Part shown: positions 6,224-59,506 of the stretch, piece by piece | How positions within the stretch are numbered: the stretch's first letter is position 1 | Layout: every line of letters starts with the position of its first letter | Assembly (NCBI RefSeq): GCF_988242995.1 | Contig: NZ_OZ547043.1 | Strand: one strand, 5' to 3' | DNA: 64,000 nucleotides | The notes under the pieces: model-generated | Database searches by the model: none | What the model was told of the DNA's origin: nothing | Seen by the model: the letters and a program-made list of their open reading frames with translations, nothing else | Program-made: the position numbers and the translations under genes

Positions 6224-8077
6224 CTACATCTTCTCCAGCAACTTCTTCACATCTTTGCCATTGCGGGAATCTTTATTCCGCTCGGCCCAGTCGTTAAGAC
6301 GGCGTTTTGCTTCATCCTGTAGATGTTTACGCAGTAACTGATCCACTTGCAGGCTGTAATTAAGTTGCTGCCAGTTGCCATAAACCCGCAGCGGTACTGG
6401 CGTTTCTTTGAGGAAATCAATCAGTTTGCTTTCCCCGTTCCAGCCCCCCACGACCCGAATATCAAACTGGGTGTCACAGGTTTGATCTGCCAGATTCAAC
6501 ATGCCTTCCCCTGTCAGCACCAGCACAGGCGATTGACCTTGCATGTCGTTTAACGTCACGACGCCATCCTTCAACGTCAAATCGGTGGTAAAGCGGTCAA
6601 GACGCGTCACGTTATCGAAGTTTTCAGCGGCCTTCACATCACCACCATTACGTTCTACCGCTTGCTGAATCATCTGCTGGAAGTTCATCCCTTCCATGCG
6701 TGTATCAGTCATTTCGACATGTGCCTGCCCTTGCCAGTTGTGGCGGAATGCGTCGGCATCTATGTCAGCACCGGAGAAATCACCAGCCAGTGACATCTTT
6801 CCGGTCAACGAAATCGGATAGTTAAACGCCTTCAGAATGGTGCCAATCTCAACGTTTTCCAGCCGTGGCTGGAAGTTTATCCGCGGATTTATTGATGTCG
6901 CGTCCAACGTGCCCGGCAGTGAAACCTGTCCACCGTTAAGTTTGCCCTGCAGTTGAGTAATTTCCAGCAAACCCGACTTGTTGGTCATTTGCGTGGCAAC
7001 ATCTGTAAAATTCATTCCGCGCCAGCGCACGTTACTGGCCTGCAACAAAATATCAGCCGTAAAGCCTTGCAGTCCCTGATAGGCCGGTTCATCAATACGC
7101 GAAGAAATGACCGGGCGCGGCAACGTTGATTGGCTCTGCCCTTGCTGCGCGGCACCGTTCTCACCGTTCGCTGTTTCATTAAGGGGGATGAGGTTGTCAA
7201 GATTCAGTTGCGGGAATTGCAGTCTCAGCTGCCATTCCGGTTTCTCTGTCAACGTGACCTGTGCTTGCCCGCTCAGCGTACTGTCATTGGCGGTCAAACT
7301 AATTTGGTTAAATGAAAGGCGTTTATGTGACTCCTGCCACTGGACCTGGAAACTCCCCTGCCCCTGAATACCTTGTTTTGGTAAATCTGCACCCTGCAAC
7401 TGCCAGTTAACTTGTTCAATAGCCGCCGTTAAATCATGCGGATAATCAGAAGCATCTACCGTACCGTTAAGGGATATCGTGAGATCGCGCTGATCGCGAT
7501 TAACCCGCCCGGAGAACTCAAATGAACCACGATGTTGGGGATCTTGTTCCATTTGCAGGCGAATATTGCGGATTGTCACCTGCTCGTCATCTTCATGCTG
7601 GAACACCAGCACGCTGTCCGCCACCTTAAGACTGGATATATCAAACGACCATCCGCGATCGTCTGACAGATCCGGCAAGGTATTGTCGCGTGGTGCAACC
7701 GGGGCATCTTCACTGCGTACCGCTTCCGTCTGCGGCGTCAGTTGGATCACTGCCCCTTTTAGCATCACCTGCTTAACGCTCAGTTGATGACTCAGCAGTG
7801 GTAAAAGCGCCACGTCCAGACGCATGTTGTCTGCGCGAACCAGTGGCTGGCTCGCGCCCTGGGCAGTGAGAGACATTCGCCCGGAGAGGATACTAAGCTG
7901 CGGCCAGACGTGCCAACGCAGTGGCCCGTCGAGCTGCAATTGATAACCGCTACGTGCAGCAACTTGCTTGACCATATAGTCGCGGAAATCATTCGGATTC
8001 ACCAGCAACACTAACGCAGATAACCCGGCCACCAGCACGACCAGGAGTATCATCAGCGTCGTCAGAAATCGTCTCAT
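6224..8077 (-). CDS. asmA: Outer-membrane assembly protein AsmA
   Basis: 617-aa ORF with N-terminal TM anchor (MRRFLTTLMILLVVLVAGL); conserved position upstream of dcd. Confidence 0.9.
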   Translation of the reverse strand: MRRFLTTLMILLVVLVAGLSALVLLVNPNDFRDYMVKQVAARSGYQLQLDGPLRWHVWPQLSILSGRMSLTAQGASQPLVRADNMRLDVALLPLLSHQLSVKQVMLKGAVIQLTPQTEAVRSEDAPVAPRDNTLPDLSDDRGWSFDISSLKVADSVLVFQHEDDEQVTIRNIRLQMEQDPQHRGSFEFSGRVNRDQRDLTISLNGTVDASDYPHDLTAAIEQVNWQLQGADLPKQGIQGQGSFQVQWQESHKRLSFNQISLTANDSTLSGQAQVTLTEKPEWQLRLQFPQLNLDNLIPLNETANGENGAAQQGQSQSTLPRPVISSRIDEPAYQGLQGFTADILLQASNVRWRGMNFTDVATQMTNKSGLLEITQLQGKLNGGQVSLPGTLDATSINPRINFQPRLENVEIGTILKAFNYPISLTGKMSLAGDFSGADIDADAFRHNWQGQAHVEMTDTRMEGMNFQQMIQQAVERNGGDVKAAENFDNVTRLDRFTTDLTLKDGVVTLNDMQGQSPVLVLTGEGMLNLADQTCDTQFDIRVVGGWNGESKLIDFLKETPVPLRVYGNWQQLNYSLQVDQLLRKHLQDEAKRRLNDWAERNKDSRNGKDVKKLLEKM

Positions 8078-8098
8078 GGTATCCTCAATGGGCCTGAA

Positions 8099-8680
8099 TT
8101 AGTCTTTATCGATTCGGCTGGCTACCGCGCCCTGCTGGTTGCGATATTTCGCATCTTCACGGCGGTTGTAAGGTCGCGCCGCCGGGCCGGAAAGCGGCTC
8201 AAAGCTCAGCGCACCAATTAACATGCCCGGACGCAGCGCCAGCGGCAGCTTACCGGAGTTGTAGAACTCCAGCACAATACAGCCAGACCAGCCCGGATCG
8301 ATACGGTGCGCGGTGACGTGCACCATCAGCCCCAGACGCGCCAGTGAGGAACGACCGTCCAGCCATCCCACCAGATCGGCTGGCAGCGTCACCGACTCCA
8401 GCGTCACCGCCAGCGCCAGCTCTCCTGGGTGAAGATAAAACGCCTCGCTTTCATCGAGTACGATCTCATCGCTCATCACGCGGTCAAGCGCGGCGCTCAC
8501 TTCATCTTTGGGACCGCTCAGATCGATAAACGCTGCCGTGTGACCACGGAAGGTACGAAATTTATTGCCCAGGCGCACATCCACCGTCGCGCCATTAATA
8601 CGCTCCACTGGCGGACGTGGGTTGATCGACAAACGGCCTTCATCAAGCCAGGCTTCAATATCTCGGTCACACAGACGCAT
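8099..8680 (-). CDS. dcd: dCTP deaminase
   Basis: 193-aa ORF beginning [17 protein letters not shown]; conserved neighbour of udk. Confidence 0.9.
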
Positions 8681-8771
8681 GGCATTTTCTCCTTTCGTGC
8701 ATCACTCCCTTAACGCCAATTACGTCAAGGGCATACCAGGTTATCACTGAACGGTACACAATTTATCAAGC

Positions 8772-9413
8772 TTATTCAAAGAACTGACTTATTTTCGCTT
8801 TCAATATATCGATGGCGATGCGGTTTTTCCCGCCGCGCGGCACGATAATGTCCGCATATTGTTTAGAAGGCTCAATGAATTGCAGGAACATCGGGCGCAC
8901 GGTTTTTTGATATTGCGCCATCACTGAATCCATTGAACGCCCACGCTCGTTAACGTCACGCTTGATGCGGCGCATCAGGCAGATATCCAGCGGGGTATCA
9001 ACGAAAATGGAGAAGTTAAGTTCGTCACGCAAACGCGCATCTGTCAGCAACAAAATGCCTTCGAGAATGATGACCTTCTTCGGCTCAACCGTCACCGTTT
9101 CTTTCATTCGCGTATGTTCAACATAGCTGTAAACCGGCAGGTCAATTGCCGAGCCGCGTTTCAACGCTTGTAAATGCTCAAGCAACAGGCTGTGATCCAT
9201 CGCGCTGGGATGGTCGTAGTTGGTCTTAACGCGTTCTTCCATCGACAGATGGCTTTGATCTTTGTAATAGCAGTCTTCGGGAATTACGCCGATGTGTTCA
9301 TCACCGACTTGCTCACGTAATTCACGATAAAGGGTACTGGCAATAAGACTCTTGCCGGAAGCCGATGCGCCAGCGATACCGATAATGACGCACTGATGAG
9401 ACTGATCAGTCAT
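8772..9413 (-). CDS. udk: Uridine/cytidine kinase
   Basis: ORF track 8772..9476; start trimmed to ATG 9413 ([23 protein letters not shown]-loop), giving 213 aa. Confidence 0.9.
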
Positions 9414-33099: not shown

Positions 33100-33186
33100 G
33101 CTGAAAAACATAACCCATAAAATGCTAGCTGTACCAGGAACCACCTCCTTAGCCTGTGTAATCTCCCTTACACGGGCTTATTTTTT
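33100..33186 (+). ncRNA. cyaR: CyaR (RyeE) Hfq-dependent sRNA
   Basis: 87 nt recognised from memory as CyaR: GCTGAAAAACATAACCCATAAAATGCTAGCTGTACCAGGAACCACCTCCTTAGCCTGTGTAATCTCCCTTACACGGGCTTATTTTTT, ending in an intrinsic terminator. Confidence 0.85.
33160..33186. other. P2-type attachment-site core (27 bp) overlapping the cyaR 3' terminator
   Basis: AATCTCCCTTACACGGGCTTATTTTTT is the reverse complement of the P2 att core AAAAAATAAGCCCGTGTAAGGGAGATT as recalled; it abuts the ogr end of the prophage. Confidence 0.7.
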
Positions 33187-39890: not shown

Positions 39891-40257
39891 CCGTTTAACT
39901 CCGTGGTTAATGGGTGCAACTATTTTCTGTTGTGCAGAGCATGAGACGCTATTTGCCCTGGATGGTCAGTGGATGAAACAACAGATACAGAAAAGGCGGG
40001 CAATTCGCCCGCATTTCCTAATTTGTACTAACCCAGCTTCCAACTGACAATTTACGTAGCCAAAAAGCTATCAAGTCTGGCAGACTGATTTGTACGAGGT
40101 GTGGATAACCATAATTATGTGCATGCTAACATCACGGTGCATGAGTCAATCGGGTCTATGCCAAAGAATTACGCCTTGATTGACCATAGATTGCTTGCCC
40201 TTGAATTTGACCATTCCAATAAAATGAATTATGATAATCGTCAAATGGAGGTGCACA

Positions 40258-40902
40258 ATGATCAAACACACCGCAGCAGAAAGGGAAACCAACACTTCAG
40301 CTAAGCTGAATGAATACCAGTTGAACCTTCTGAAAAGAATTAACAACCTCGCTATTTCCCTGATGCCTGAATTTGAAGACAAAAACCAGGCAATTAATGC
40401 TATCACGCTGGATGATAGTTCACTGATGCAATTGCTCTACACCGTTCAACTCGAACAGAAGACTCGTGTCAATGACTACGAACTACGTAAAGTGCGCCGT
40501 CGTCGCGAAAATCTGGAACGATTTTATCGTGGGCTTCAGGAGTTAGGCGGTACGCTAAAGGTAAATGACGTGGTCGATATTCTTGGAATCACCCGCCAGG
40601 CGATCAACATTCGCGTTAAGAAGAACAAGCTTTTAGCATTCAAGCAGAACGGTGATTTTATTTTCCCGAAATTTCAGTTCACAGATAACGGGCTGATTCC
40701 CGGCTTTGAAGACGTAATGGCGGCATTTGACGAGAATACCCATCCAATGCTGAGGTTGGGTGTGCTGAAATCACCAATAGAGGTTAATAGCGAAGGCCTG
40801 AAAAAGACGCCGATTCAAATCATGCAGGACGGCGCTAAAAATAGTGAACTTAGTCTGGCTATCCGTGCCGCTAAACAGTTCGGAAATCATGTATCCAGTT
40901 AA
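40258..40902 (+). CDS. Hotspot cargo: HTH protein with C-terminal MbcA/ParS (DUF2384)-like toxin-binding region; putative antitoxin or regulator
   Basis: ORF track 40231..40902; ATG 40258 has a GGAGG RBS, giving 214 aa. Central HTH-like segment (VVDILGITRQAINIRVKKN); C-terminal SPIEVNSEGLKKTPIQIMQDG...LSLAIRAAKQFG resembles the MbcA/ParS toxin-binding domain as recalled; not in the P2 core. Confidence 0.45.
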   Translation: MIKHTAAERETNTSAKLNEYQLNLLKRINNLAISLMPEFEDKNQAINAITLDDSSLMQLLYTVQLEQKTRVNDYELRKVRRRRENLERFYRGLQELGGTLKVNDVVDILGITRQAINIRVKKNKLLAFKQNGDFIFPKFQFTDNGLIPGFEDVMAAFDENTHPMLRLGVLKSPIEVNSEGLKKTPIQIMQDGAKNSELSLAIRAAKQFGNHVSS

Positions 40903-40908
40903 TTGTTT

Positions 40909-40940
40909 TAAAAAGAGGGGCTAGCCAGCCCCTCTTTGGT
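40909..40940. terminator. Bidirectional intrinsic terminator between the convergent cargo genes
   Basis: Hairpin AGAGGGGCT-AGCC-AGCCCCTCT flanked by T-rich runs on both strands, lying in the 38-bp gap between the two stop codons. Confidence 0.6.
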
Positions 40941-41651
40941 TTACATTGGTTCTGGCGTAATTTCGAATCCAAGCAGTTCTTCGAACATCTCTTCACCTGA
41001 CATCGTTCCTTTGTGCCACCCTTTAGGGAAGATACCTTCGTCATTTTCGATGTAACTGGCATAAGGCACCATCCCCTGAGGGGTATCGGTAAAGGCTGGT
41101 GTACTATCCGGTCGTTCCCAAAAGGCATAACAGCGTTTATAGCGTTTATGCCTTGAGGTATAGGCTATCCCGTCATAGTCACGCCCGAAATGTGTATAAA
41201 GATGTTCCATTAGCCATTGAGTAAAAGTGTAATCCTCGTTCTCTAAGCTATCCAAAGGAATATGTAACAACTCACAGAGCGCTACAACATCGATCACTTT
41301 CACTGGCCTCATGACATCCACAGAGCACATATAGTGTTGTGAAAGTACCGATTCAGGATAAGAAATCGTCCCTTCGAGATGGAGCAAACGCCCATAAGCT
41401 TCTGCCGCCGCCGTTAACGCAGAGTCAGAGGCATACCATACCGCCACACATCCCCCTGGGGGGTTGTATCGCCCACATTCATTTTCCTCAATTGGCGCTC
41501 TGAAGTTGATTGCGCTTTCATACAACGCCCTTTGATGACGCTTCAAAAGACCAGAGCCTGGTTGAATGTCAATCGCCGGAATACGTCCAGATTTATTTTT
41601 TGCAGCAATTCCTTGTGCAACAATATTTTTTTCAAATGTCCATTTGGTCAT
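40941..41651 (-). CDS. Hotspot cargo: RES-domain protein (putative NAD+-consuming toxin)
   Basis: ORF track 40941..41699; ATG 41651 has an AAGGAG RBS, giving 236 aa. N-terminal CGRYNPPGGCVAVWYASDSALTAAAE matches the RES signature GGRWNPP...Y.A.S...A..E (Arg, Glu); later DGIAYTSRH supplies the conserved Ser. Confidence 0.55.
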   Translation of the reverse strand: MTKWTFEKNIVAQGIAAKNKSGRIPAIDIQPGSGLLKRHQRALYESAINFRAPIEENECGRYNPPGGCVAVWYASDSALTAAAEAYGRLLHLEGTISYPESVLSQHYMCSVDVMRPVKVIDVVALCELLHIPLDSLENEDYTFTQWLMEHLYTHFGRDYDGIAYTSRHKRYKRCYAFWERPDSTPAFTDTPQGMVPYASYIENDEGIFPKGWHKGTMSGEEMFEELLGFEITPEPM

Positions 41652-42066
41652 TTTTACTACTCCTTCTATAAACAGATTAAGCCATAGGCTCCTCTCCATA
41701 TTGATTGAAAATAATCCCTACCGTGCTTGCCCGGCAGGGGGTATGAGAACATGTGTATCTCAATCTCGATTATACCAAGCAAATTTTCTATTTTTCGGAA
41801 ATTTAGAGAGTTTTTTTAATGCTTCGCATGCCTTCTCGATGTATTGATGGGGCTGAAAAGAAGAAATAACGCAGGAAGTTTTACGGAAAGGAGAACTATA
41901 AAGATTTTTTTCAAGTGAATTAGAAATAAGAACTTCGCAGGATACTGCATTTTTAGTGAAGATGGGTTGAGTTTCTCAGCAAGAGTCCCGCGAGAGCCGT
42001 ATTGACAGCATGCATGACTCGGAGATTATTCCCCATGCAGGATGGTACACCAATGCAAGAGTTGGT

Positions 42067-47336: not shown

Positions 47337-47968
47337 AGAGGGCTCCCGGTTGTGCCGCCGCTGTCGCCGGGGTGTTTATGGGTATGCAGTACCTTACCGT
47401 TTGATGAGAGTTCACCGCCGGTGTGTTCAATGTTGCCGCGCATCGTCCCGCCCTTCTGCACTTCCAGCGTGCCGGTAATCAGCCTGTTGGTGCAGACCAC
47501 CTCCGGTGTGTCCAGGGTGACGCGGGTTGATGCTTTCACCATGACCACCGGCACCGTGGCAGTAACAGAATCAGAAGCCGTCACGCTGGCCGTTTTAATT
47601 CCGCTTACCGTGAGTGCACTGGTTTCAGGTTCATATTCAATCACCGCCCCGTCAGGGAAACGGATATGCAGGGCATCCGCCGACGCAGACGGCGCGGGGT
47701 TATTGCCGGAATAAATCCCCGGCAGAACGAACGCCGTGTCGAGTTCACCGCCCACGGCCAGAATCAGCACCTGCTCCCCCACGGAAGGTGCCCACCATGT
47801 GCGCGAACGACCGGCACGATGGGTCAGCCACTGAAGCCAGTCAGTGCACATGCCGCCGGTCTGCACACGGCAGCGACCGGCGTTAAGGTCGGTTTCGACG
47901 ACAAGGCCGGTGCGGATCATGTTGCGCAGTGCGCGCGCGATTTCCTGAATATTTGCGAGAGTGTTCAT
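47333..47968 (-). CDS. V: Baseplate spike protein gpV
   Basis: 211-aa ORF beginning MNTLANIQEIARALRNMIRTGLV. Confidence 0.85.
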   Translation of the reverse strand: MNTLANIQEIARALRNMIRTGLVVETDLNAGRCRVQTGGMCTDWLQWLTHRAGRSRTWWAPSVGEQVLILAVGGELDTAFVLPGIYSGNNPAPSASADALHIRFPDGAVIEYEPETSALTVSGIKTASVTASDSVTATVPVVMVKASTRVTLDTPEVVCTNRLITGTLEVQKGGTMRGNIEHTGGELSSNGKVLHTHKHPGDSGGTTGSPL

Positions 47969-48034
47969 AACGGGAAGGATGCCGCCGGGTCATACCGGCG
48001 GCAATGTGACGATGAGGTGTCGGGAATGGCACAA

Positions 48035-48487
48035 CTAACGGTCGAGGTGAGCCAGGATAATCTCTTCAATCATCTGTACATCCTCACCGGTGAAGCCGAG
48101 CAGAGGGCGCGCCGGATAATCAATTTTCTTACCGTCTTTCCGGTTTTCTTCCGACAGACCGAACTGATGCACACTGGCGATTTTCGGTGACTTCCCGCCG
48201 TAAAACTCCATTGATGCCTGTTCCGGGCTGGCGCGGATATGCAAAAAACGACTGGTGATAAGTTTCGCAAACATTTTTCGCTTAACACGACCGGTCTTTT
48301 TTCTGGCGCTCTGCTGCTGGCGTGGCGCATAGGGTGTGCCGTCCGGGGCTTTCTGTGCCATCACCCGACGCTGCTGACTCTGTCGCAGACGTTTTGCCAG
48401 TTCGGCACTCAGTCGCCGACGCCCTGATGGTGACAGTGATTCAATCAGCCCGGTCAGCCGGTCTTCAAAACGCTTAAACTCATTCAT
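48035..48487 (-). CDS. S: Tail completion protein gpS
   Basis: 150-aa ORF, conserved position. Confidence 0.8.
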   Translation of the reverse strand: MNEFKRFEDRLTGLIESLSPSGRRRLSAELAKRLRQSQQRRVMAQKAPDGTPYAPRQQQSARKKTGRVKRKMFAKLITSRFLHIRASPEQASMEFYGGKSPKIASVHQFGLSEENRKDGKKIDYPARPLLGFTGEDVQMIEEIILAHLDR

Positions 48488-48947
48488 CCCACTTGCTCAC
48501 CAGTTCGCCATTGATATAAAGCTCCATCGGGCGGGTGACCGGCTCCGGCGGCGGAGGTTCCGGGATATTCTTCACATGCAGTGCGCCGTCCACCTCACTG
48601 ACCAGCGTGCGCTCGGTCAGCATCAGGCTGATGCTGATATCAAAGCTGCTGTCATTGTTGATGTCCGCATAAAACGTGAAGCCCTTTTTCTGGCCTTCGT
48701 CGGTGGTCATGATGTCGGGCTGATTTTCCCGCAGCCACGCCAGCACCGGCACGATGAGCAGGTCAAAATCACCGGTAAAGTCGGTCACAATGACATTGAG
48801 CGTGTAACGCTTTTCGAATGACAGCGACGTCGCCAGTGTGGAGGCAATACTCCCGTTATCCACGAATATCCGCAGCATCTCTGGACTGGTTTTCAGCACC
48901 GTGACGGCATCAGTCAGCGCCCTGCGCAGGCTGTCGGGTTTGAGCAT
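48480..48947 (-). CDS. R: Tail completion protein gpR
   Basis: 155-aa ORF, conserved position. Confidence 0.8.
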   Translation of the reverse strand: MLKPDSLRRALTDAVTVLKTSPEMLRIFVDNGSIASTLATSLSFEKRYTLNVIVTDFTGDFDLLIVPVLAWLRENQPDIMTTDEGQKKGFTFYADINNDSSFDISISLMLTERTLVSEVDGALHVKNIPEPPPPEPVTRPMELYINGELVSKWDE

Positions 48948-49200
48948 CGTTTTCGTCCTGACAGTGTTTAATCATTTTTACCTGGCTGGCACAGCGTGCC
49001 AGCGCGTTCTCAAGCTGCCGGATATCGGCACTTAAATCGCCGTTCTTCTGCGGGTCACTGCCCGGCATCGGGCAAAGACTCACTTTCGGGCAGGCGTTGT
49101 GGACAATCACTGGCGTCGGCGCAGGCCGGGCGCTGGTGCAACCGGCGCACAGCATCAGGCAGGTCAGCACCGTACCAGCGGCGGAAATCTTCGTTTTCAT
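48910..49200 (-). CDS. lysC: LysC (Rz1-like outer-membrane lipoprotein spanin component), nested out of frame in lysB
   Basis: Start at ATG 49200 (MKTKISAAGTVLTCLMLCAGCTS..., lipobox LCAGC), about 96 aa; overlaps lysB in another frame. Confidence 0.7.
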   Translation of the reverse strand: MKTKISAAGTVLTCLMLCAGCTSARPAPTPVIVHNACPKVSLCPMPGSDPQKNGDLSADIRQLENALARCASQVKMIKHCQDENDAQTRQPAQGAD

Positions 49201-49480
49201 TAAGTAACCTCGTGATGGTTTTCTCGCGCAGTGCTTCACGCTTCGCGGCGTTCTCCAGTTCCTGACGCAGTGCCACCTGCGCCAGCTCGTTTTTGTCTGC
49301 CCTGGTGAGGGCAACATGAAGCTGGTTTTTCAGCATGGTGATGGTCGTCTGCTGTTCACTGGCGACGTTGTTCACCCTGTCCAGCGAGGCGCGCAGGCTG
49401 GCGTTTTCATGCTTCGCCAGAAACAGCCCCGCCACCGCCAGCGATAACAACACAACCAGCACAATCATCAGCTTTGACAT
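49055..49480 (-). CDS. lysB: LysB (Rz-like inner-membrane spanin component)
   Basis: 141-aa ORF with N-terminal TM segment (MSKLMIVLVVLLSLAVAGLFLA) and coiled-coil periplasmic region. Confidence 0.8.
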   Translation of the reverse strand: MSKLMIVLVVLLSLAVAGLFLAKHENASLRASLDRVNNVASEQQTTITMLKNQLHVALTRADKNELAQVALRQELENAAKREALREKTITRLLNENEDFRRWYGADLPDAVRRLHQRPACADASDCPQRLPESESLPDAGQ

Positions 49481-49893
49481 GGTTCCCGCCCCTCAAGACG
49501 TTGACGGCAGGCCGTACGTATCAGCCGGAAGAACACCGACGCCACGAGATAAATCAGCGCGGTAAAAATCCACCCGGCAGCGACCAGCGAGATAAATGTC
49601 GCCACCATCACCACCAGAGCCGCCGCCCGTCTGCACCACGGCACCGGCTGCAAAAACAGCGACATGACAATCTTCACGGCCAGCGACTCCGGTGGCAGCT
49701 CCCACCCGTAGCGTTCCAGCGCATACTCAGTGGCATAAACGCCGACACCACCGGCAACCACACAGATAACCGTCGCCAGAATCGCCCAGGCAGCGACAAA
49801 ATTGACGGCCACGCTCTGCGGGTAAATCAGGGACAGTGCCAGCATCAGCGCCAGCGACACGTGCAGCATCAGTGAAAGGGATAATTTCTTCAT
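49468..49893 (-). CDS. lysA: LysA (membrane protein, lysis timing)
   Basis: 141-aa hydrophobic ORF between K and lysB. Confidence 0.75.
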   Translation of the reverse strand: MKKLSLSLMLHVSLALMLALSLIYPQSVAVNFVAAWAILATVICVVAGGVGVYATEYALERYGWELPPESLAVKIVMSLFLQPVPWCRRAAALVVMVATFISLVAAGWIFTALIYLVASVFFRLIRTACRQRLEGREPCQS

Positions 49894-49907: not shown

Positions 49908-50405
49908 TTAAGCCGGTACGCCGCCAGCGGTACGCCAGACGGTGACCAGTTTTTCCAGTGAATGCTCACGCTGACCGTAACCGGCACCCGGCAGGGACGC
50001 CCAGATATTGCGACAGCGTGAAATGGCGCGCTCAATGCGTCCCGCCCGGATGTCATCCAGTGCACCGCGTTCGCGGATCAACTGAATGGCGAGTCTGTCC
50101 TGCGACAACGGACTGAAATCCGGCAGGGCAAGCTGTTTGCGGTAGTGCGGCCAGAACAGGTAAAGCTGCTGATAGCGACCGGAGGCCGTGGATTTTTCAC
50201 CGCGACGGTTAAACACCTTCGCCGGTCGGCCATGTGCGAACGGGTGGTCACTGTAGTCGGTGAAGATTTCCGGCTTCCCGTCCAGTCCGGTGACTATCAC
50301 GTCATAGCCCCGGTTTTTCGTCAGCGGGTGATTCGCCGTCCCTTCGGACACGGCCAGCATGTCGAGAAAGGCAGCGATATTCTGATGCGTGTTAATTACC
50401 GGCAT
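49908..50405 (-). CDS. K: Endolysin gpK
   Basis: 165-aa ORF downstream of holin Y. Confidence 0.85.
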   Translation of the reverse strand: MPVINTHQNIAAFLDMLAVSEGTANHPLTKNRGYDVIVTGLDGKPEIFTDYSDHPFAHGRPAKVFNRRGEKSTASGRYQQLYLFWPHYRKQLALPDFSPLSQDRLAIQLIRERGALDDIRAGRIERAISRCRNIWASLPGAGYGQREHSLEKLVTVWRTAGGVPA

Positions 50406-50686
50406 TACTGTTTCCCCCTGCCCTTAAAGCGGCGCTGAATGGCAATCTCAATCACCTGATAACCGGCGATACCCAGCATGGAGCCGATGCCGCACACCGC
50501 AGGCAGTGACAGGTCAGGAAACTGCACCAGAACAACACCGGCAACCATCGAGACAAAACCACCGAGCAACATGCGCCCGATAAACAGACGCGGGGTGATG
50601 GGTTCACCACCGGCAAGCACCTTGCCGACAACAATCAGCACCCCAATCATGAAAAGCGACAGGACGCTTTTTTCTTCTGCTGTCAT
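50405..50686 (-). CDS. Y: Holin gpY
   Basis: 93-aa ORF with TM segments and charged C-terminus (RRFKGRGKQ). Confidence 0.8.
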   Translation of the reverse strand: MTAEEKSVLSLFMIGVLIVVGKVLAGGEPITPRLFIGRMLLGGFVSMVAGVVLVQFPDLSLPAVCGIGSMLGIAGYQVIEIAIQRRFKGRGKQ

Positions 50687-57554: not shown

Positions 57555-59387
57555 TCAAACAGAGCCCTGTTCAAAAACAGTATCAAAATATGGTAGGAGA
57601 GGATAAGCACACAGAAAGAAAATCAGGATGCATGCATATGTCGTTGTTTCATCGTAACAAGCATTAGTATATAAATTACCATGTGCTAATTTATGTCTTA
57701 AGGTTGCCCCACTCTTTCTGTTAAAAAGAACATCGATAGTCAAAACAAGATTTTTAGAAAAGATACTTTCCAAATCATCTCTGCATTTATCTAGAAGCTG
57801 AGAAATACTTGTTGACTCCTCTAATCCCTTATCCAAATATCTAGTAGCATCCTTTCCACTAAGCTCATAATAATAACGAACCATACCTTCCATTTGTGGT
57901 ATTAAAAGATAAGCTGCACTGATGTAATCTCCCTGCCATAATTTGTAAAAGCCCAAATTAAAAATCTCCCTAAACTCCGGCTTGACAATTGGACTAGTTG
58001 TAACCAATTTAACGAATGTTGACAACGTCAAGCCATGTTCTTGAGAAAGTACATAGCGAGCAGGTTCAAAGACACCGTTTACAAAAATCTTATGAGTAAT
58101 CTCGAAATTTCTTAGATATTGATCAATAACAACATCATCACTCATATCTTTTTTATTATCCAACGGCGGGATTGTATATATCTTACGCCCACTCTCATCA
58201 TTAATTTCTGTTCCAACAAAACTAGAGAATAAACTTTTTTCTGATAATCTTAAAACTTGTTCCCTCATGCTTTCAATATTTTCAATCGGTGTTTCACTCA
58301 TTAAAACTTTGAATATATCGGGCAAAGAACGCCCCGTCAGTTTTTTTTCACTTTCAGCAACCAAGTCACTAATATCAATAGAATGGCTTAAAGTGACATA
58401 TTCACTCCTTACTTCTTCTCTCAAATTAGCAAGTTGTTCCTTTAAATCTTCTATCTGTTGGCTATCACCACCGTACTGTCTTAATTCAGAGATAGCTGTT
58501 CTTAACCAAGAGATCTTACCCATATTATCAGGTCGTTCTGTTGCAACTTTAATAGTAATATTTGCAGATGCCAGTTTACATCTCTTGGCACGTTCATACT
58601 CACCATTTTTTTCATAAATAACTGCACTTGTCATATAAAGTGATTTTACAGCATCATAATATTTTTTATCTTTATGCTGCTCAGCCATCTTCTCAGCATT
58701 TTCCGCATACTGCAGATTATACCCATCAAAATCACGCACCATAAACCAAGTCAAATTATTGAAACCTTCAAAGATTAATCTTTCATTTTGAATACTATAA
58801 AGAGAATGAATGGCATTTTTAATCGCCATGTTTCCTTCTGATTTTCTAGGGTAGACCATTTTATTAATGTGCAAAGCCCTAGCAATATAATCACGAGCAA
58901 AAATAAAGCAATTTAAATCACTTTCATCCATGCTTTCGTTTTTTATTATTAGCTTTTCAATTGCTATATTTAGCATTTCAGCATAGGAATCAATTGCTTT
59001 AATTGCCACGTCTTTATTTTTCCGATTATTACACCAAACAACATCATATATTCTTGATAACAAAAATGGATTGGTTATTTTTTGAGAAACATATAAAAGA
59101 CAGTCATTCACCTGCTCATCAAAATCTTCAGGCAATATTGATCTTTTATTACCCCAAATCATTTGGGGTTCAAATGCTGGAGTGTTGTTAACAACTTGCA
59201 AATTGAAACTATATAGCATACCAAAAAGAGATGCTAATTTTTTCTCTTTGGGGTTTTCTGATGACTCAGCAATCCCATCCAGATATTTTTTTATTTTATG
59301 TGCATGAAATGTAACTGGTATATACATAAAAACACTATAATCTAGTGTTTCAAGCTCTTCCCTTGTAAGAACAAAGATATCATTCAT
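57555..59387 (-). CDS. Hotspot cargo: large AT-rich protein of unknown family with C-terminal HEPN-like Rx4H motif; candidate anti-phage effector
   Basis: ORF track 57555..59492; likely start ATG 59387 with AAGGTGA RBS (MNDIFVLTREELETLDY...), giving 610 aa. Occupies the position of P2 tin/old; codon usage visibly AT-rich; no Walker A, TOPRIM or RT motif seen; LRHKLAHG near the C-terminus. Confidence 0.6.
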   Translation of the reverse strand: MNDIFVLTREELETLDYSVFMYIPVTFHAHKIKKYLDGIAESSENPKEKKLASLFGMLYSFNLQVVNNTPAFEPQMIWGNKRSILPEDFDEQVNDCLLYVSQKITNPFLLSRIYDVVWCNNRKNKDVAIKAIDSYAEMLNIAIEKLIIKNESMDESDLNCFIFARDYIARALHINKMVYPRKSEGNMAIKNAIHSLYSIQNERLIFEGFNNLTWFMVRDFDGYNLQYAENAEKMAEQHKDKKYYDAVKSLYMTSAVIYEKNGEYERAKRCKLASANITIKVATERPDNMGKISWLRTAISELRQYGGDSQQIEDLKEQLANLREEVRSEYVTLSHSIDISDLVAESEKKLTGRSLPDIFKVLMSETPIENIESMREQVLRLSEKSLFSSFVGTEINDESGRKIYTIPPLDNKKDMSDDVVIDQYLRNFEITHKIFVNGVFEPARYVLSQEHGLTLSTFVKLVTTSPIVKPEFREIFNLGFYKLWQGDYISAAYLLIPQMEGMVRYYYELSGKDATRYLDKGLEESTSISQLLDKCRDDLESIFSKNLVLTIDVLFNRKSGATLRHKLAHGNLYTNACYDETTTYACILIFFLCAYPLLPYFDTVFEQGSV

Positions 59388-59506
59388 CGTTTTCACCTTT
59401 TTCAGTATAAATTTGCACGCATTATTATTAGCAACATAATCATCAATAGTTAACACATGCAGATAGACAGCAATTTTACTATTATGCAACAAATTAAATC
59501 AGATGT

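Follow-up and report, generated by a model that had tools for sequence, protein, structure and literature searches.

On its minus strand, the 64,000-nt window (the whole stretch of contig NZ_OZ547043.1 that was analysed) carries two partly superimposed reading frames, lysB and lysC, which lie at the end of a phage lysis cassette and directly before the tail-completion gene R (Table 1). The start codon of lysC is located 280 nt downstream of that of lysB, which places lysC in the +1 frame. An earlier note on this DNA, which gave the coordinates, the start codon and the peptide correctly and left out the strand (minus), had described a lipoprotein ORF that starts at 49200 and lies out of frame within and beyond lysB. 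This is the arrangement we found, the two genes having 146 nt in common and lysC running on for 145 nt after lysB has ended. The title of that note calls the pair "nested", which does not fit: lysC outlasts lysB and enters R by 38 nt, which is the "overlapped" class, and the SpaninDB row for the P2 pair is likewise marked "ovl" (overlapped i-/o-spanin, lipobox LCAG). The LysC precursor begins with MKTKISAAGTVLTCLMLCAGC, and its mature form is predicted to be 76 residues long. The 20 nt preceding lysB read cgtcttGAGGGGcgggaacc; the sequence upstream of lysC is aaccatcacGAGGttactta, identical in P2, and the GAGG element 7 nt before the lysC ATG is kept in P2, Wphi and PSP3.

Table 1. Features of the lysB/lysC locus and its surroundings (window coordinates).
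Feature	Position	Strand	Remarks
lysB	49480..49055	minus	putative i-spanin (inner-membrane spanin subunit), 141 aa, N-terminus MSKLMIVLVV
lysC	49200..48910	minus	putative o-spanin (outer-membrane lipoprotein spanin subunit), 96-aa precursor
Two-frame stretch	49055..49200	minus	146 nt; LysB residues 94-141 and LysC residues 1-49
lysC/R overlap	48910..48947	minus	38 nt; 3′ end of lysC over the start of R
R, tail-completion gene	48947..48480	minus	PF06891, 153 bits
Shine-Dalgarno-like GAGGGG	49489..49494	minus	5′ of lysB; the same element is given for P2 in SpaninDB
Shine-Dalgarno GAGG	49208..49211	minus	within lysB, 7 nt 5′ of the lysC ATG
LysB transmembrane segment LMIVLVVLLSLAVAGLFLA	49415..49471	minus	codons 4-22, N-terminal
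LysC signal peptide MKTKISAAGTVLTCLMLCAG and predicted lipidated Cys21	49138..49200	minus	codons 1-21; Cys21 codon at 49138-49140
Hairpin GCTGGCAC-GCT-GTGCCAGC	48985..49003	minus	inside lysC, 8-bp stem, just upstream of R and S
Y, holin	50686..50405	minus	100% identical to P2; PF04550 (Phage_holin_3_2), 143.6 bits
K, endolysin	50405..49908	minus	100% identical to P2 K, full length
lysA	49893..49468	minus	92.9% identical to P2 LysA, full length
27-bp P2 att core AAAAAATAAGCCCGTGTAAGGGAGATT	33160-33186	minus	exact, single copy in the window; adjoins ogr and marks one prophage end

Both products match curated families. LysB scores 164.6 bits against the NCBIfam equivalog TIGR03495 (phage_LysB; cutoff 92.75), while LysC scores 125.6 bits (E = 6.6e-37) against the NCBIfam equivalog NF038368 (P2_Rz1; cutoff 27) and 56 bits against Pfam PF23793 (LysC; cutoff 27). 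In PHROG, LysB falls in family 89 and LysC in family 456, both described as "Rz-like spanin". Judged by the scores of the family models, the two ORFs are far beyond chance. A protein identical to this LysB is recorded under the name "Rz-like lysis system protein LysB [Escherichia coli]". Of the 5426 complete E. coli genomes, 1603 carry the 571-bp region, for which the PGAP label is lysB/lysC. A 2.4-kb stretch that includes the pair is 97-98% identical at the DNA level to fiAA91-ss, HQ103, Wphi and several Peduovirus P2 isolates, whose annotation there gives X, Y, K, lysA, lysB, lysC and R. When the PDB was searched with LysB and LysC profiles, nothing significant came up, the matches being to coiled coils or noise (E of at least 0.015).

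The ATG at 49200 is the better start for lysC, because it has GAGG 7 nt upstream, because it is the start annotated in P2 and because in Wphi a stop codon stands directly before this ATG. The mechanical list of ORFs opens a frame of 135 aa at an ATG at 49317; we rejected this start, which is unconserved and has no ribosome-binding site, the frame being closed by a stop in Wphi and nearly so in PSP3. The Met16 start chosen by PGAP, yielding 81 aa, was also rejected: it leaves LysC with neither a signal peptide nor a Shine-Dalgarno sequence. RefSeq/PGAP annotation of E. coli genomes commonly has lysC start at this Met16, with an 81-aa product that begins MLCAGC; what is lost (49156-49200, minus) is the part of the signal peptide that contains the n- and h-regions. 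The LysC of the window in its exact 81-aa form is recorded on 57 contigs, and the exact 96-aa LysC has no entry in a collection of 15 billion proteins. The 96-aa start is the one used by the P2 RefSeq record and by SpaninDB. Annotation from Met16 would hide LysC from lipoprotein predictors, and the 96-aa start should be used; beyond correct annotation, the importance of the locus is small.

It could be argued that lysC is a chance open frame in and after lysB and not a gene at all, given that it runs out of frame within another gene and that gene callers often omit or shorten it. The conservation data refute this idea, whose probability we put at practically nil: LysC matches an equivalog model, its signal peptide, cysteines and NGDLSADIR sequence are kept in relatives, and the GAGG element is conserved. 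In an alignment of 20 LysC homologues (61-98% identity), L15, L17, C18, T22, C37, C70, C80 and the NGDLSADIR core show no variation, and M1, A7, G9, G20, C21 and C43 almost none. A tblastn search with LysC found 273 phage records, in 254 of which the match extends over 80% or more of the protein; LysC of more distant Peduoviridae shows about 35-45% identity. Interruption of the ORF in homologues, which the earlier note had named as the result that would speak against it, was looked for in six Peduoviridae phages with hosts in Salmonella, Yersinia, Klebsiella, Burkholderia and Pseudomonas (PSP3, YenM_06.16-2, SEN8, ST79, PaeM-D14A and Kp4846-2). The lysC frame is open in all six, with a start in the +1 frame, 146-176 nt shared with lysB and 94-157 nt past the lysB stop.

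The DNA that specifies the LysC signal peptide (residues 1-21) also encodes residues 94-115 of LysB. Of the seven LysB positions that do not vary over nine aligned phages, six fall in this section (R100, W102, L107, P108, R113 and L114). It is reasonable to suppose that the sequence-tolerant signal peptide of LysC faces the part of LysB that is under the strongest constraint. Wherever the overlap differs from P2, the substitution is silent in one of the two frames and alters the amino acid in the other; this pattern is uninformative, since it is largely dictated by the +1 geometry.

LysB residues 4-22 have the highest 19-residue Kyte-Doolittle mean in the protein (2.99) and are helical in the AlphaFold model, for which a nine-sequence alignment was the input; SpaninDB gives the transmembrane domain of P2 LysB as 22 residues. 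In this model, LysB is a single continuous helix from residue 3 to residue 95 (10-residue block-mean pLDDT of 70-93), and the rest of the chain forms two short helices and a disordered tail. Of the 119 residues of the periplasmic part, 31% are charged; its two cysteines, Cys120 and Cys126, lie towards the C-terminal end. An i-spanin is marked by one N-terminal transmembrane segment and a mostly helical periplasmic domain, and LysB has both.

The LysC signal consists of an n-region with Lys2 and Lys4, a hydrophobic core, and A-G-C at positions −2, −1 and +1, in accordance with the charged n-region, hydrophobic core, small residues and Cys of an o-spanin lipoprotein signal. Cys21 is followed by Thr22 and Ser23; the +2 residue is not Asp, as is proper to sorting to the outer membrane, and Thr22 is invariant in the LysC alignment. 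The mature form contains eight Pro, as well as Cys37, Cys43, Cys70 and Cys80. The periplasmic cysteines available for disulfide links, two in LysB and four in LysC, equal the P2 counts in SpaninDB. In the AlphaFold model, LysC begins with a signal helix; residues 21-55 form a Pro-rich linker without structure, and residues 56-88 a second helix, predicted with the best confidence over residues 61-80.

Strict lipobox patterns (PROSITE PS51257; DOLOP [LVI][ASTVI][GAS]C) do not match LysC, because position −3 is occupied by Cys (L-C-A-G before Cys21). The LysC of P2 itself fails these patterns in the same way, so that the failure is no argument against family membership; the Cys at −3 is a property of the P2 family and not a defect of the present copy. 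The entry for P2 LysC in SpaninDB, a supplement to Kongari et al. 2018 (PMC6139136), has a 20-residue signal, "LCAG", a 76-residue mature form and four periplasmic Cys, with the remark that LipoP gives cleavage at 20 and 17 and that there is "No hit by Prosite". The counterpart of Cys21 in distant homologues is the Cys of a canonical lipobox, namely LSGC (YenM_06.16-2, SEN8 and Kp4846-2), LPAC (ST79) and LAGC (PaeM-D14A), which supports the predicted lipidation at Cys21. Cys18, at −3, is invariant in the P2/PSP3 subgroup, and Leu stands there in the more distant LysC homologues. Both Cys18 and Cys21 might be used, by alternative lipidation or processing or in a signal-peptide disulfide, giving two forms of LysC that tune the timing of lysis; we consider this a long shot.

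The lysB/lysC pair described here is already known throughout: it is a close variant of the textbook pair of P2. In P2 (NC_001895), lysB occupies 7922-8347 (NP_046767.1), lysC 8202-8492 (NP_757382.1) and R 8455-8922. The two loci agree in the lengths of the products (141 and 96 aa), the +1 frame, the 146-nt overlap, the 145-nt extension and the 38-nt overlap with R, and equally in the ribosome-binding sites, the LCAG/C lipobox, the positions of the cysteines, the hairpin and the place in the Y-K-lysA-lysB-lysC-R-S operon. Over the full length of LysB, the amino acid identity with P2 is 93.6% (nine substitutions). For LysC, the comparison with P2 that the earlier note had proposed as a check gave the same geometry and 94.8% amino acid identity, with five substitutions: R2K, F6S, P25R, P34H and T52K. 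The substitutions spare the lipobox, the cysteines and the invariant R-x-W...LP....RL motif of LysB. The lysis region is 97.4-97.7% identical in DNA sequence to those of Wphi and fiAA91-ss, from which it differs by point substitutions only, with the same annotation; the identity with the best E. coli chromosomes is 98.6%. P2 LysB/LysC is the paradigm of a two-component spanin and the example of the "overlapped" architecture (Kongari 2018, PMC6139136), and another paper (PMC3091744) has P2 lysC start in the +1 frame within lysB and stop out of frame in R.

The same overlapped +1 layout and the same place before R were seen in SEN8 (Fels-2-like), KS14/KL3, ST79 and the phiCTX-like D14A, where KS14/KL3, ST79 and D14A make up a comparison set of Burkholderia and Pseudomonas P2-like phages. 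This group shares the LysB R-x-W...LP...RL motif and the C-P-x-V...C...N-G-D-L core of LysC with the present pair, but the identity is only about 21-45%, and the lipoboxes are canonical (LSGC, LAGC, LPAC) instead of CAGC.

The likeness to lambda Rz/Rz1 lies in the combination of an inner-membrane subunit (N-terminal transmembrane segment and helical periplasmic domain) with an outer-membrane lipoprotein, the latter encoded in the +1 frame, and in the location of the pair at the end of the lysis cassette. Lambda Rz1 is embedded, wholly inside Rz, whereas the present lysC passes lysB into the next gene. Mature Rz1 of lambda, with 40 aa and 10 Pro, has no secondary structure (PMC6139136); in contrast, mature LysC counts 76 aa and eight Pro and has a confidently predicted C-terminal helix. 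Neither protein matched an Rz/Rz1 family in the Pfam, NCBIfam and PHROG results, and the NCBIfam and Pfam matches were to the LysB and LysC models only. As far as its sequence tells, the pair is one that would work like Rz/Rz1 but stands outside the Rz/Rz1 family. Direct mechanistic work has been done almost only on lambda Rz/Rz1 (PMC6139136).

The reading frames and their geometry, the family membership, the membrane-targeting features and the conservation in relatives lead us to read lysB/lysC, with a probability of about 0.95, as the overlapped two-component spanin of a P2-like (Peduovirus) prophage. The two genes would be transcribed late, in the O operon, together with Y, K, lysA, R and S. 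LysB would be a type II inner-membrane protein, with the transmembrane helix 4-22 followed by a long helical periplasmic stalk, while LysC would be translated in the +1 frame from its own ribosome-binding site inside lysB. The LysC precursor would then be exported, cut by signal peptidase II after Gly20 and lipidated on Cys21, and the lipoprotein is expected to go to the outer membrane, the +2 residue being Thr and not Asp. LysB and LysC are thought to pair via their C-terminal periplasmic parts into a complex that spans the periplasm. Once the holin Y has freed the endolysin K and the meshwork of the cell wall is broken down, the spanin complex would be free to act; its destruction of the outer membrane, most likely through fusion with the inner one, would be the last step of lysis. 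We infer the lipidation, the LysB-LysC complex and the disruption of the outer membrane from the work on lambda Rz/Rz1 and on P2.

A different role is suggested by the P2 RefSeq notes ("nonessential; affects timing of lysis" and "regulation of lysis") and by the older name "LysB family phage lysis regulatory protein", which survives in databases: LysB and LysC could be mere accessory regulators of lysis timing that do not themselves break the outer membrane. The transmembrane segment of LysB, the lipoprotein signal of LysC and the arrangement of the genes are, however, those of Rz/Rz1 equivalents, and both the curated family models and SpaninDB class LysB/LysC as spanins. Markov and co-workers reportedly found in 2004 that lysB and lysC, when co-expressed, complemented lambda Rz/Rz1 null mutants, which likewise counts against a purely regulatory role. 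Spanin mutants, as known from lambda Rz/Rz1, look "nonessential" in shaken cultures without added divalent cations. We therefore hold a purely regulatory role to be highly improbable and retain the spanin reading.

The earlier note had also counted Y, K and lysA with the pair as a complete lysis cassette, and rightly so: the three genes lie directly upstream, full length and undamaged. Y, K, lysA and lysB share one strand and succeed each other at spacings of −1, +14 and −13 nt within one holin-endolysin cassette, and Y, K and lysA all match PHROG lysis families. The endolysin K is recognised by PHROG only, with no Pfam or NCBIfam match at E ≤ 0.01.

The lysA gene is labelled "endolysin" in RefSeq phage records and in PHROG 162, and "DNZ54_00345 family" in NCBIfam. 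Its product is a hydrophobic membrane protein of 141 aa, described in the P2 note as nonessential and affecting lysis timing; in PMC3091744, LysA is presented as an antiholin with four TMDs. The label "endolysin" looks like a propagated misannotation.

All P2 proteins were mapped onto the window to establish the gene content of the prophage. The late genes Q, P, O, N, M, L, X, Y, K, lysA, lysB, lysC, R, S, V, W, J, I, FI, FII, E, T, U, D and ogr are full length, and so are the early genes cox, orf78, B, orf80-83 and A (orf81 and A within one or two residues); identity to P2 over these late and early genes is 89-100%. H departs from P2 after residue 207 and G is divergent, as is usual for tail fibres. 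The mapping found no counterpart of P2 orf30, fun(Z), orf91, tin or old in the window. The gap between S and V amounts to only about 67 nt (47968-48035), the nonessential orf30 of P2 being missing there, as in Wphi. To the left of the att core lie the host genes mdtC, mdtD, baeS, baeR and yegQ, in a flank that shares 98.2% identity with E. coli. The end of the window cuts through the repressor gene C, most of which lies outside, and int is located beyond it, as is the other end of the prophage.

Intact lysis genes may be silent passengers, if the prophage is defective or never induced. The window ends inside C and int is not visible in it, and E. coli K-12 is known to carry P2 remnants at the same chromosomal site by yegQ, which would favour such a state. 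Against it stand the 25 comparable late genes from Q to ogr, all full length with 93-100% amino acid identity to P2 (a count that sets aside the variable C-terminus of the tail fibre H, G and the cargo genes), the full-length cox, B and A, the exact att core and a lysis cassette without frameshift or stop. On balance, we find silent passengers unlikely and keep to lysB/lysC as the spanin genes of a P2-like prophage. A complete and undamaged lysis cassette fits an active phage without proving one; to speak of a "functional prophage", as the earlier note did, goes beyond the evidence, with C cut and int outside the window.

The hairpin within lysC (Table 1) corresponds exactly to P2 8399-8417, annotated in P2 as a "putative transcription attenuator" of the O operon. 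A terminator scan does not see it, because no T-run (U-tract) follows the hairpin. Between 47900 and 51000, the promoter scan yielded no promoter-like sites, and the four terminator-like sites were not in excess over the 3.5 expected from shuffled sequence. That the hairpin attenuates transcription into the tail genes R and S is a minor possibility.

Two slots of the prophage hold genes other than those of P2. The slot of old, tin and orf91 is taken by a gene for a 645-aa protein (57555-59492, minus), which matches DUF7380 (131.5 bits), weakly DUF4209, and the PADLOC candidate defence system PDC-S39 (282 bits). The fun(Z) slot (40231-41699) carries as cargo a RES-domain protein of 252 aa (40941-41699, minus), accompanied by a divergent ORF of 223 aa (40231-40902, plus) without a family match; this cargo may be a toxin-type or defence module.
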